From the NCBI RefSeq assembly GCF_024502345.1, contig NZ_JALDNN010000001.1: 64,000 nucleotides of DNA. One strand, written 5' to 3'. The stretch comes from Escherichia coli (GTDB lineage: Bacteria; Pseudomonadota; Gammaproteobacteria; Enterobacterales; Enterobacteriaceae). Position numbers and translations under genes: made by a program. Within the stretch, counting starts at the first letter, position 1. Each line of letters starts with the position of its first letter. Of the stretch, positions 53,700 through 60,322 are shown piece after piece. Below the pieces are notes generated by a model. It was not told the DNA's origin, searched no databases, and saw only the letters and a program-made list of their open reading frames with translations.

Positions 53700-54887
<1,188 letters not shown>

Positions 54888-54926: not shown

Positions 54927-56360
54927 CTAATTGTTCTGATAAATATCTTTATACAAACGGCTTTCAAAACGCACTAACGGAATACGGCGATTACGCTGAT
55001 CCGCAGGTTCTACTGCATAGCCAGAAAGATATTGTACAAACGCCATTCGTTGCCCGCTCGCTGTGGTAATGAATCCCGCCAGGTTATATACCCCCTGCAA
55101 CGAACCGGTTTTCGCTGAGACTTTTCCATCCACGCCCGCCTGATGCAGACCTGCACGGTACTGCAAAGAGCCGTCATAGCCCGCCAGCGGCAGCATGGAG
55201 ATAAAGTTAAGTTCATTGTCGTGTTGGGCAATGTATTGCAGCACCTGCATCATGGTGGCGGGGGCAATCAGGTTATGCCGCGAAAGCCCTGAACCATCGG
55301 CAATAATGGTGTTTCCAATATCGACACCGGCTTGCTGGCGCAGGATCTGACGCACGGCGTCCGACCCGGCCCGCCATGTTCCAGGCACATTGAAGCGCGC
55401 ATGGCCTATCATGCGGAAAACCGTATCGGCGATCATGTTGTCCGACTTTTTCAGCATAATCTTAAGCAGATCGTGCAACGGGGCCGACTGTTTACTGGCA
55501 ACTACCGTTCCAAGTTCGTTAACCTGAGTCTGGCGCAGCAGTGTTCCGCTCCAGGTGATACCTGCCTGTTTTAACTCATCTTTCAGAATTGCCCCGGCAT
55601 AGCTGGCTCCATCCTGCACGGCAAAAGCCAACGGGAGCGGCTCAGAACGTTGCGGCAGGCATCCCGTTAGCGTAAAGCGGTTCAGGTCGCCTGGTACGAC
55701 ATCCAGTTCGCAGTATTGCGCTTCGGCAGAACCACGGGGGAGTGTGCGTACCTGGCTGAACATCGTAACGGGGTAATAAGATGCCACGCGTATAAAAGCC
55801 ATATCACCAGGTTTTGGGGCACTGTAGAGCGAGACGGAGAAACAGTTGCGGTCAACTATGGCGGCGGCAGGCGGAGCGCTAAAGCATTGTGTCATGTCAT
55901 TCCATGGCCAGCCGGGGGCTTTATCGTGGCTGGCGAAAATGGAGGTATCTATCAACACATTGCCATCGATTTGGTTGACGCCAGATTTTTTCAAAGTCGC
56001 GACCATATTGCGAATATCCTGACGTTTTAACGTCGGATCGGCACCAAATCGCGCCACTAAGTCACCCTTAAGTACGCCGTTTTCCACATTGCCTTTGGTT
56101 TCAAGCGTCGTGGTAAAACGAAAATCGGGGCCGAGTTGAATCAACGCCGCCAGCGCAGTAATCACTTTCTGCGTACTGGCGGGCAGCGCCATCTGCTGAC
56201 TGTGGTAATCAATAGCGGGGGCCGACGCGCCGACTTTTTGCACCATCAGGGCAAGGTTGGCACCAGCGGGGAGTTGAGTAATGTACTCATCAACATTTGC
56301 GGCCTGAACACTAAACGCTATACAGCTGGTCAATCCGATGATAAATCTGGAAAATCGCAT
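54927..56360 (-). CDS. dacB: D-alanyl-D-alanine carboxypeptidase/endopeptidase PBP4
   Basis: ORF track 477 aa with signal peptide. Confidence 0.95.
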   Translation of the reverse strand: MRFSRFIIGLTSCIAFSVQAANVDEYITQLPAGANLALMVQKVGASAPAIDYHSQQMALPASTQKVITALAALIQLGPDFRFTTTLETKGNVENGVLKGDLVARFGADPTLKRQDIRNMVATLKKSGVNQIDGNVLIDTSIFASHDKAPGWPWNDMTQCFSAPPAAAIVDRNCFSVSLYSAPKPGDMAFIRVASYYPVTMFSQVRTLPRGSAEAQYCELDVVPGDLNRFTLTGCLPQRSEPLPLAFAVQDGASYAGAILKDELKQAGITWSGTLLRQTQVNELGTVVASKQSAPLHDLLKIMLKKSDNMIADTVFRMIGHARFNVPGTWRAGSDAVRQILRQQAGVDIGNTIIADGSGLSRHNLIAPATMMQVLQYIAQHDNELNFISMLPLAGYDGSLQYRAGLHQAGVDGKVSAKTGSLQGVYNLAGFITTASGQRMAFVQYLSGYAVEPADQRNRRIPLVRFESRLYKDIYQNN

Positions 56361-56460
56361 AATCTCGCGCTAACAACCTGGAATCGAGCCGTCATACTAC
56401 GGCGCAACGCCCTATAAAGTAAACGATGACCCTTCGGGAACTTCAGGGTAAAATGACTAT

Positions 56461-56513
56461 CAAAATGTGAATTGTAGCTGACCTGGGACTTGTACCCGGG
56501 TCGGTATTTTTTT
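56461..56513 (+). ncRNA. graL: candidate GraL, the greA leader RNA ended by an attenuator hairpin
   Basis: -10-like TAAAAT at 56449..56454, then hairpin gacctggg..cccgggtc and a T7 run about 95 nt upstream of the greA ATG. Confidence 0.4.
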
Positions 56514-56607
56514 GCTTCTGGTCCCGGTGAGGAGTTATGCCGGGCAGGCCGAACAGCCGGGGTGGGTGAAGACTTGCCCCATCAGGAATATTCAAGAGGT
56601 ATAACAA

Positions 56608-57084
<477 letters not shown>

Positions 57085-57130
57085 GAATTACCCAATACTC
57101 AAGATGTTGATGTATTGTAAAGAAAGGAAA

Positions 57131-57152
57131 AAGGCCGCTATGCGGCCTTTTA
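57131..57152 (+). terminator. Rho-independent terminator after greA
   Basis: aaggccgctatgcggcctt hairpin followed by T. Confidence 0.7.
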
Positions 57153-57239: not shown

Positions 57240-57533
57240 TTAGCGTGGCAGCGAGATTTTACGTTCTTTAGTTGGGCGATAAAGCACCAGCGTTTTACCG
57301 ATGACCTGTACATTACAGGCGCCGGTTTCGCGCACGATAGCTTCCACGATCAAGGTTTTAGTTTCGCGATCTTCGGTGGCGATTTTCACCTTGATGAGTT
57401 CATGGTGCTCTAACGCTTGTTCAATCTCGGCCAGCACCCCTTCGGTCAAACCATTACTGCCAAGCAGAACAACTGGCTTGAGCGGATGTGCCAGACCTTT
57501 CAGGTGCTGTTTTTGTTTAGTACTCAGATTCAT
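57240..57533 (-). CDS. yhbY: ribosome assembly RNA-binding protein YhbY
   Basis: ORF track 97 aa. Confidence 0.92.
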   Translation of the reverse strand: MNLSTKQKQHLKGLAHPLKPVVLLGSNGLTEGVLAEIEQALEHHELIKVKIATEDRETKTLIVEAIVRETGACNVQVIGKTLVLYRPTKERKISLPR

Positions 57534-57658: not shown

Positions 57659-58288
57659 ATGACAGGTAAGAAGCGTTCTGCCAGCTCCAGCCGCTGGCTT
57701 CAGGAACACTTTAGCGATAAATATGTTCAACAGGCACAGAAAAAGGGGTTACGTTCCCGTGCCTGGTTTAAACTTGATGAAATACAGCAAAGTGACAAAC
57801 TCTTTAAACCGGGAATGACGGTTGTCGACCTTGGTGCTGCTCCGGGTGGTTGGTCACAATATGTGGTCACCCAAATTGGCGGCAAAGGCCGCATCATCGC
57901 TTGCGATCTTTTACCTATGGATCCTATCGTTGGTGTGGACTTTCTTCAGGGCGATTTTCGTGATGAACTGGTGATGAAAGCACTGCTGGAGCGCGTTGGC
58001 GACAGCAAAGTCCAGGTTGTCATGTCCGATATGGCACCAAACATGAGCGGAACACCGGCGGTGGATATCCCCCGTGCCATGTATCTGGTGGAACTGGCGC
58101 TAGAAATGTGTCGTGATGTATTAGCGCCAGGTGGCAGTTTTGTAGTGAAGGTGTTCCAGGGCGAAGGTTTCGATGAGTATCTAAGGGAAATTCGCTCCCT
58201 GTTTACGAAGGTCAAAGTTCGTAAGCCGGACTCTTCTCGTGCACGTTCGCGGGAAGTGTATATTGTAGCGACCGGGCGTAAACCCTAA
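57659..58288 (+). CDS. rlmE: 23S rRNA 2'-O-ribose U2552 methyltransferase RlmE (FtsJ)
   Basis: ORF track 209 aa; SAM-binding motif [13 protein letters not shown]. Confidence 0.96.
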
Positions 58289-58387
58289 CCGGGAGATTTC
58301 AGACGAAAGTTTGAAAGATGCTGGATATAGAGTATCCTGACGCTGTTTTTAACACAGTTGTAATAAGAGGTTAATCCCTTGAGTGAC

Positions 58388-60322
58388 ATGGCGAAAAACC
58401 TAATACTCTGGCTGGTCATTGCCGTTGTGCTGATGTCAGTATTCCAGAGCTTTGGGCCCAGCGAGTCTAATGGCCGTAAGGTGGATTACTCTACCTTCCT
58501 ACAAGAGGTCAATAACGACCAGGTTCGTGAAGCGCGTATCAACGGACGTGAAATCAACGTTACCAAGAAAGATAGTAACCGTTATACCACTTACATTCCG
58601 GTTCAGGATCCGAAATTACTGGATAACCTGTTGACCAAGAACGTCAAGGTTGTCGGTGAACCGCCTGAAGAACCAAGCCTGCTGGCTTCTATCTTCATCT
58701 CCTGGTTCCCGATGCTGTTGCTGATTGGTGTCTGGATCTTCTTCATGCGTCAAATGCAGGGCGGCGGTGGCAAAGGTGCCATGTCGTTTGGTAAGAGCAA
58801 AGCGCGCATGCTGACGGAAGATCAGATCAAAACGACCTTTGCTGACGTTGCGGGCTGCGACGAAGCAAAAGAAGAAGTTGCTGAACTGGTTGAGTATCTG
58901 CGCGAGCCGAGCCGCTTCCAGAAACTCGGCGGTAAGATCCCGAAAGGCGTCCTGATGGTCGGTCCTCCAGGTACCGGTAAAACGCTGCTGGCGAAAGCGA
59001 TTGCAGGCGAAGCGAAAGTTCCGTTCTTTACTATCTCCGGTTCTGACTTCGTAGAAATGTTCGTCGGTGTGGGTGCATCCCGTGTTCGTGACATGTTCGA
59101 ACAGGCGAAGAAAGCGGCACCGTGCATCATCTTTATCGATGAAATCGACGCCGTAGGCCGCCAGCGTGGCGCAGGTCTGGGCGGTGGTCACGATGAACGT
59201 GAACAGACTCTGAACCAGATGCTGGTTGAGATGGATGGCTTCGAAGGTAACGAAGGTATCATCGTTATCGCCGCGACTAACCGTCCGGACGTTCTCGACC
59301 CGGCCCTGCTGCGTCCTGGCCGTTTCGACCGTCAGGTTGTGGTCGGCTTGCCAGATGTTCGCGGTCGTGAGCAGATCCTGAAAGTTCACATGCGTCGCGT
59401 ACCATTGGCACCCGATATCGACGCGGCAATCATTGCCCGTGGTACTCCTGGTTTCTCCGGTGCTGACCTGGCGAACCTGGTGAACGAAGCGGCACTGTTC
59501 GCTGCTCGTGGCAACAAACGCGTTGTGTCGATGGTTGAGTTCGAGAAAGCGAAAGACAAAATCATGATGGGTGCGGAACGTCGCTCCATGGTGATGACGG
59601 AAGCGCAGAAAGAATCGACGGCTTACCACGAAGCGGGTCATGCGATTATCGGTCGCCTGGTGCCGGAGCACGATCCGGTGCACAAAGTGACGATTATCCC
59701 ACGCGGTCGTGCGCTGGGTGTGACTTTCTTCTTGCCTGAGGGCGACGCAATCAGCGCCAGCCGTCAGAAACTGGAAAGCCAGATTTCTACGCTGTACGGT
59801 GGTCGTCTGGCAGAAGAGATCATCTACGGGCCGGAACATGTTTCTACCGGTGCGTCCAACGATATTAAAGTTGCGACCAACCTGGCACGTAACATGGTGA
59901 CTCAGTGGGGCTTCTCTGAGAAATTGGGTCCACTGCTGTACGCGGAAGAAGAAGGTGAAGTGTTCCTCGGCCGTAGCGTAGCGAAAGCGAAACATATGTC
60001 CGATGAAACTGCACGTATCATCGACCAGGAAGTGAAAGCACTGATTGAGCGTAACTATAATCGTGCGCGTCAGCTTCTGACCGACAATATGGATATTCTG
60101 CATGCGATGAAAGATGCTCTCATGAAATATGAGACTATCGACGCACCGCAGATTGATGACCTGATGGCACGTCGCGATGTACGTCCGCCAGCGGGCTGGG
60201 AAGAACCAGGCGCTTCTAACAATTCTGGCGACAATGGTAGTCCAAAGGCTCCTCGTCCGGTTGATGAACCGCGTACGCCGAACCCGGGTAACACCATGTC
60301 AGAGCAGTTAGGCGACAAGTAA
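58388..60322 (+). CDS. ftsH: ATP-dependent zinc metalloprotease FtsH
   Basis: 644 aa from [19 protein letters not shown]...; Walker A GPPGTGKT, zinc motif HEAGH. Confidence 0.97.

Follow-up and report, generated by a model that had tools for sequence, protein, structure and literature searches.

A GraL-type terminator in the greA leader of an O145-like Escherichia coli strain, its known function in K-12, and its possible counterparts beyond the Enterobacterales

The window, by which we mean the whole 64-kb stretch of DNA that was analysed, is part of the Escherichia coli chromosome and carries the genes obgE (53715–54887, plus strand), dacB (54927–56360, minus strand, ATG at 56360), greA (56608–57084, plus strand, ATG at 56608, 158 amino acids), yhbY (57240–57533, minus strand), rlmE (57659–58288, plus strand), and ftsH (58379–60322, plus strand). 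A 247-bp gap separates the divergent dacB and greA, and it is within this gap, on the greA strand, that the GraL element lies. The 401 bases around GraL are 100% identical to O145:H28 strains and were found in 5425 of 5426 complete E. coli genomes, while the segment 56426–56530, used as a 105-base query, has at least 99% identity in 5204 complete E. coli genomes. No annotated feature underlies GraL in the K-12 record (NC_000913.3, 3328716–3328962), nor in any of the 12 E. coli RefSeq records listed for the 105-base query, so that graL, though covered by an Rfam family and by two experimental papers, is unannotated in those records, and it was with the family and the papers that the sequence was compared. 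On the far side of greA, a perfect palindromic hairpin, AAAAGGCCGCTATGCGGCCTTTT (57129–57151), stands between the convergent greA and yhbY with T-runs on both strands; it is a probable bidirectional terminator, and it gives weak, sub-threshold Rfam matches to STnc540 and STnc420.

Two overlapping promoters can be read on the plus strand of the gap. The first, the sigma70 promoter P1, was recovered by the promoter scan as the −35 element ATGACC (56426–56431) and the −10 element TAAAAT (56449–56454), separated by 17 nt and with 9 of 12 consensus matches, the −10 element being nearly invariant among Enterobacterales. The original prediction had singled out this TAAAAT as −10-like, which it is, but left unmentioned the overlapping second promoter, the sigmaE-dependent P2. 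The latter consists of GGAACTT (56437–56443), an exact match to the published −35 consensus, and TCAAA (56460–56464), which is conserved in the alignment and corresponds to +2 to +6 of the P1 transcript; with its 16-nt spacer it is the sole match in the 64-kb window to the sigmaE consensus GGAACTT-N16-TCNAA (PMC2836576), where 0.03 would be expected. Since the greA AUG has been placed at +150 (PMC6829880) and the ATG is at 56608, the P1 start is A56459 (56608 − 149); on this numbering, the terminator stem described below opens at +19, or 56477, and GCTT closes at +59, or 56517, with its last T. The succession of A56459 and T56460 agrees with the ApU priming of P1 in vitro (PMC2836576), and the P2 start can be assigned to A56470, 11 bp downstream, from its ApA priming (A56470, A56471). 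As far as the letters tell, both pairs of motifs stand at the right spacing, the predicted starts preceding the stem by 18 and 7 nt. In K-12, P1 has been mapped by primer extension and in vitro transcription, P1 and P2 are described as two strong overlapping promoters whose starts lie 11 bp apart, and the P3 and P4 ends are considered by the authors to be probable processing products (PMC2836576). The minus strand carries TTTACT (56423–56418), an 18-nt spacer, and TAGTAT (56399–56394), both motifs lying in invariant blocks; this is a possible divergent dacB promoter, which would start near 56387, about 27 nt upstream of the dacB ATG, and would possibly share conserved DNA with greA P1. Potrykus et al. 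saw no primer-extension product for dacB (PMC2836576).

Downstream of these starts, terminator scanning and folding agree on an 11-bp stem with three G.U pairs, formed by the 5' arm GCTGACCTGGG (56477–56487) and the 3' arm CCCGGGTCGGT (56495–56505) around the loop ACTTGTA (56488–56494), all on the plus strand. The pairing of gacctggg (56480–56487) with cccgggtc (56495–56502), from which the hairpin had been proposed, is genuine, but makes up only the inner 8 bp of a stem that spans 56477–56505 in full. The T7 run proposed to follow it occupies 56507–56513, and the distance to the greA start, put at roughly 95 nt, is 94 nt between the last T and the ATG. The stem directly precedes ATTTTTTTGCTT, and the two together are the published 11-bp stem and AU7GCU2 tail; the A-T7-GCTT tract (56506–56517) lies 91–103 nt upstream of the greA ATG. 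Taken with the published 3' ends, the sequence defines a termination window T-A-T7-G-C-T-T, or UAU7GCU2 in RNA, at 56505–56517, and the longest P1 form of GraL, 59 nt, would thus cover 56459–56517. Its first 18 nt (+1 to +18, 56459–56476) are unpaired in the fold and hold AATGTGAATTG (56464–56474). This 5' segment also contains a start-stop ATG-TGA (56465–56470), which has no Shine-Dalgarno sequence and is not conserved in the Enterobacterales alignment, Enterobacter, for example, having ATTGAAAA at that place. The 60-nt segment folds at −21.4 kcal/mol, compared with −10.6 ± 2.5 kcal/mol for 200 shuffles, none of which was as good (z = −4.29). For the complementary strand of the hairpin the fold reaches only −11.1 kcal/mol, and no T-run follows the stem there; the element is therefore specific to the greA strand. 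The terminator scan of the region returned 5 sites against 1.2 expected, a count that is not decisive alone.

The conservation of this hairpin was followed in 80 gammaproteobacterial greA loci, with one genome per species. A hairpin and T-tract lie upstream of greA, on the greA strand, in 25 Enterobacterales genera, at about 100 nt before the greA ATG in the closest relatives. Across these 25, the 11-bp stem is paired in 88.7% of alignment cells, compared with 53–56% when the partner is slid by one column, and changes on both sides, that is, compensatory ones, are found in 10 of the 11 pairs. The covariation score of the stem is 0.512, against 0.283 ± 0.026 in shuffles, with 0 of 500 shuffles as high. 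RNAalifold predicts the GraL stem as a single helix and finds no second conserved helix inside GraL in the Enterobacterales alignment. A covariance model made from only the GraL part has one match in the window (56458–56520, 66.3 bits), and matches the Enterobacterales loci from which it was built and no other order.

The element also belongs to a described family, namely Rfam RF01769, "Enterobacteria greA leader", which matches at 56391–56512 over its full length (model positions 1–124) with 127.5 bits, against a gathering score of 60, and an E-value of 2e-24. The dacB–greA intergenic region differs from that of K-12 MG1655, the strain used to characterise GraL (PMC2836576, PMC6829880), at two positions only, 56529 (G in the window, A in K-12) and 56580 (C and T, respectively), both outside GraL, in the read-through leader beyond the terminator. 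From P1 through the U-tract there is no difference, and the published K-12 experiments therefore apply to an identical sequence. These experiments established that the K-12 greA leader contains an intrinsic terminator, in which AU7GCU2 comes after an 11-bp stem (Potrykus et al. 2010, PMC2836576). This terminator stops about 66% of transcription in vivo and about 60% in a pure in vitro system, with an efficiency that is constant over growth and with GraL 3' ends that lie in UAU7GCU2, give or take 2 nt, and spread across about 10 nt (PMC2836576). The hairpin arms were placed at +19 to +48, the end of the U-rich tail at +59, and the greA AUG at +150 (Dylewski et al. 2019, PMC6829880), the GraL products being 49–59 nt from P1 and 37–47 nt from P2 (PMC6829880); in the window, P1 products of 49–59 nt map to 3' ends at 56507–56517. 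The family match, the identity to K-12, and the base-for-base fit to the published map bear out the proposal that GraL arises here by premature termination, and we hold with great confidence that the element is the known greA leader terminator that produces GraL, which tells nothing new about E. coli itself. The span first proposed, 56461–56513, captures a real element but is slightly short, with starts at 56459 and 56470 and 3' ends that reach 56517. By extension, this O145-like strain would be expected to behave as K-12 does. A literature search found no paper combining "GraL" and "Term-seq", and PMC4161252 names GraL solely among its references.

The Rfam model also takes in 68 nt of sequence ahead of the mapped starts, and its three further hairpins (56391–56461) lie upstream of the P1 start or overlap it. 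In 26 Enterobacterales, the 15 upstream Rfam pairs have a covariation score of 0.072, compared with 0.071 in shuffles, of which 224 of 500 were as high, and substitutions in these hairpins simply break pairs. What the upstream stretch (56391–56458) does show in the same 26 is a series of invariant blocks, AAAGTAAACGATGAC, at the P1 −35 element, CATACTACGG, GAACT, and TAAAAT, with variable spacers between them, as promoter DNA would be expected to show. Because this part lies upstream of the mapped starts and shows no covariation, the 5' two thirds of RF01769 are probably promoter DNA and not RNA structure.

The mechanism that we propose draws on two sources. The strand-specific and conserved terminator anatomy, the family membership, the covariation, and the complementarity to nudE were observed here; the use of the promoters, the efficiency of termination, the sizes of the transcripts, and the GreA feedback come from published work on the identical K-12 sequence. 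Transcription would begin at P1 (A56459) or P2 (A56470), giving 18 or 7 nt of unpaired RNA, respectively, then the G+C-rich 11-bp hairpin (56477–56505), and then UAU7GCUU. About two thirds of the polymerases would release their RNA at many adjacent positions of this 13-nt tract, yielding GraL of 49–59 or 37–47 nt, and the remaining third would continue for about 90 nt to make greA mRNA, so that termination would set the GreA level. More catalytically active GreA in vivo would lead to more GraL and less read-through, a negative feedback, and the freed GraL could act in trans through its unpaired 5' segment, which is complementary to the nudE 5' UTR.

The feedback is the part of this scheme on which the main alternative bears. 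In vivo, GreA raises GraL and lowers read-through, even from the lacUV5 promoter (PMC6829880). This effect in cis needs the GreA catalytic residue D41, +1 to +18, and the native stem sequence, and is independent of the promoter, the sequence after +59, Hfq, the Nus factors, and sigmaE (PMC6829880). Scrambling +1 to +18 weakened GreA autoregulation, and with +1 to +18 scrambled or the stem arms swapped, the response to GreA is lost while termination persists (PMC6829880). In a pure in vitro system, GreA has no effect on termination (PMC6829880), and as the feedback is not reproduced with pure components, a further factor presumably takes part; for the same reason the GreA feedback could be indirect. 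Equally, since the termination efficiency is reported not to vary through growth, the element may work mainly as a fixed valve. It is on this ground that one may argue for a constitutive leaky terminator that merely splits transcription between GraL and greA mRNA, GreA autoregulation being an indirect effect: the efficiency is alike in vivo and in the pure system, it does not change through growth, GreA is without influence in vitro, and the scrambled versions still terminate in vitro. Against this, GreA overproduction in vivo does raise GraL and cut read-through, also behind lacUV5, and the scramble or arm swap abolishes the response though termination stays, and we consider a purely constitutive terminator rather unlikely.

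The leader position, the partial termination, the three further hairpins drawn upstream by the Rfam model, and the ATG-TGA at 56465–56470 could together suggest a classical attenuator or riboswitch, in which an antiterminator structure, a leader peptide, or a ligand aptamer decides whether the terminator forms. We find this very improbable, as only 18 nt (P1) or 7 nt (P2) are transcribed before the stem, the upstream Rfam hairpins precede the mapped starts and do not covary, and RNAalifold offers no second conserved helix within GraL. The ATG-TGA was rejected as a leader peptide for its lack of conservation, there being no other candidate and no Shine-Dalgarno sequence, and the authors themselves found that the leader fits neither class (PMC6829880). 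The word "attenuator-like" in the original prediction is only loosely apt, there being neither a leader peptide nor an alternative antiterminator. That inverted repeats are common in intergenic DNA, and that the scan excess decides nothing by itself, leaves a negligible chance for a fortuitous repeat, or for an element serving the opposite strand or dacB, a reading refuted by the fold z-score, the compensatory changes, the minus-strand fold, in which the three G.U pairs become A.C mismatches and no T-run follows, and the direction of dacB, which is transcribed away from the site.

A GreA-responsive leader terminator, our preferred reading, can be set beside known systems. The GraL of K-12 agrees with that of the window in gene context, promoters, 11-bp stem, and AU7GCU2 tail. 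With canonical intrinsic terminators, such as lambda tR2 and the 3:4 hairpin of the trp attenuator, it shares a G+C-rich stem-loop with a U-tract and factor-independent release in vitro, but its 11-bp stem is unusually long, its U-tract is broken near the beginning by an A, it releases RNA over about 10 positions where they do so over 2–3, and it has no competing antiterminator. Like the riboswitch-sRNA SreA of Listeria, GraL is an early-terminated leader that acts in cis as well as on another mRNA in trans; in contrast to SreA, it has no ligand-binding aptamer, and its effector, GreA with the presumed further factor, enhances termination instead of relieving it.

With respect to action in trans, GraL is reported to act on nudE (Dylewski 2018). 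Positions +6 to +16 of GraL (AATGTGAATTG) form a perfect 11-nt complement of the K-12 nudE 5' UTR at −69 to −59, and an exact-complement search gave these 11 nt for nudE against a maximum of 9 nt in sampled random 250-nt pieces of the window. This search replaced the total duplex energy, which did not discriminate: at −27.0 kcal/mol, the GraL–nudE duplex was no better than that of shuffled GraL (mean −29.9 kcal/mol) or of neighbouring genes. The RNA thus shows the outward features of a trans-acting sRNA, namely a putative seed in an unpaired segment and a 3' hairpin with a U-tail. The whole seed is found only in P1 GraL, with P2 transcripts beginning at +12, and the sigma70 (P1) and sigmaE (P2) populations of GraL may therefore differ in their trans activity. 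In the Enterobacterales alignment, the nudE seed is not conserved outside Escherichia.

The read-through part of the greA 5' UTR (56518–56607, plus strand) has features of its own, namely a second hairpin, GGGGTGGGT-GAAG-ACTTGCCCC (56559–56580), the motif CAGGAAT (56583–56589), which is conserved in Enterobacteriaceae leaders, and the Shine-Dalgarno sequence AAGAGG (56594–56599). Nine Enterobacteriaceae leaders have a hairpin at the place of the second one, with different stem sequences and the pairing kept, and the C/T difference between the window and K-12 at 56580 changes a G-C into a G.U pair at its base. This hairpin lies outside the RF01769 model, and we found no published description of it; deletion downstream of +59 left autoregulation unaffected (PMC6829880). 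Eleven of the leaders examined, including those of Yersinia, Brenneria, Pectobacterium, Hafnia, Photorhabdus, Pantoea, and Erwinia, carry GTCAGGATGAC-like motifs at about −60 to −45 from the greA ATG, with the GGA in a short hairpin loop, followed by a second motif, ACAGGA, and then the Shine-Dalgarno sequence. This arrangement of GTCAGGATGAC and ACAGGA resembles CsrA binding sites. CsrA control of the E. coli read-through leader was considered and dropped, the first motif being absent in E. coli. In the supplementary data of Potts 2017, greA is absent from the CLIP peak file and marked NS in file 4, and a literature search found no paper linking CsrA and greA.

Beyond the Enterobacterales, 51 of the 80 gammaproteobacterial loci gave a terminator-like hairpin in the 170 nt ahead of greA when scanned with a tolerant, energy-based method, compared with 4–8 of 80 in controls. 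Every locus with a divergent dacB-like neighbour, namely 25 Enterobacterales, 7 Pasteurellaceae, and one uncultured Enterobacterales, has a hairpin and U-tract on the greA strand. All 7 Pasteurellaceae loci have such a neighbour, and all 7 have the hairpin and U-tract 25–35 nt before the greA AUG, just upstream of the ribosome-binding site and within about −70 to −25 from the ATG, with differing stem sequences. In nine loci of Aeromonas, Oceanisphaera, and Shewanella, hairpins with CTTTTGTTT-type tails lie about 30 nt from greA, at about −60 to −30 from the ATG. The gene upstream of greA is usually co-oriented in Aeromonas and Shewanella, and two of these nine loci (L055 and L057) carry a separate, perfect terminator at −238 to −211; because these two have such a terminator of their own, the proximal hairpin is probably a leader element rather than the terminator of the upstream gene. 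The hairpins of Pasteurellaceae, Aeromonas, and Shewanella share motifs at the stem base and in the tail, namely ..CUG.../...C(A/G)GG followed by CUUUUGUUU. RF01769 does not match the leader hairpins of these three groups, the GraL covariance model reaches 9.5 bits (E about 4) on one Pasteurellaceae locus (L031) and nothing better elsewhere outside Enterobacterales, and 16 such hairpins aligned with MAFFT gave no RNAalifold consensus, the stems being out of register. The idea that early termination in the greA leader is ancient, and common to Enterobacterales, Pasteurellales, and perhaps also Aeromonadales and Shewanellaceae, is one that we advance tentatively, as plausible but short of likely.

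Two further observations concern individual leaders. In L031, a match to Rfam RF02904, "Aggregatibacter sRNA 69", lies at −164 to −82, just upstream of the hairpin, and this sRNA may be part of the greA promoter or leader. Mangrovibacter has tandem terminator-like hairpins, one of GraL type at −134 to −116 and a second at −63 to −24, which runs into T7 immediately ahead of the ribosome-binding site.

As a rescuer of backtracked RNA polymerase and a major factor in transcription fidelity, GreA is a protein whose dosage matters; the leader terminator is the known device that limits it, as well as a textbook oddity for its imprecise termination. The result shows that a genuine regulatory element can be spotted by a first-stage reader working from the bare sequence. 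Curators, and those who take GraL studies beyond E. coli, may find three smaller points helpful: the probable non-RNA nature of the 5' part of RF01769, the presence of the whole nudE seed in P1-type GraL only, and the leader terminators of analogous position in Pasteurellaceae. If the leader hairpins of Pasteurellaceae, Aeromonas, and Shewanella were homologous to GraL, the family model, which seems to consist of promoter DNA for more than half its length, would have to be redefined, and control of GreA in the manner of GraL would occur far more widely than the Rfam family implies.
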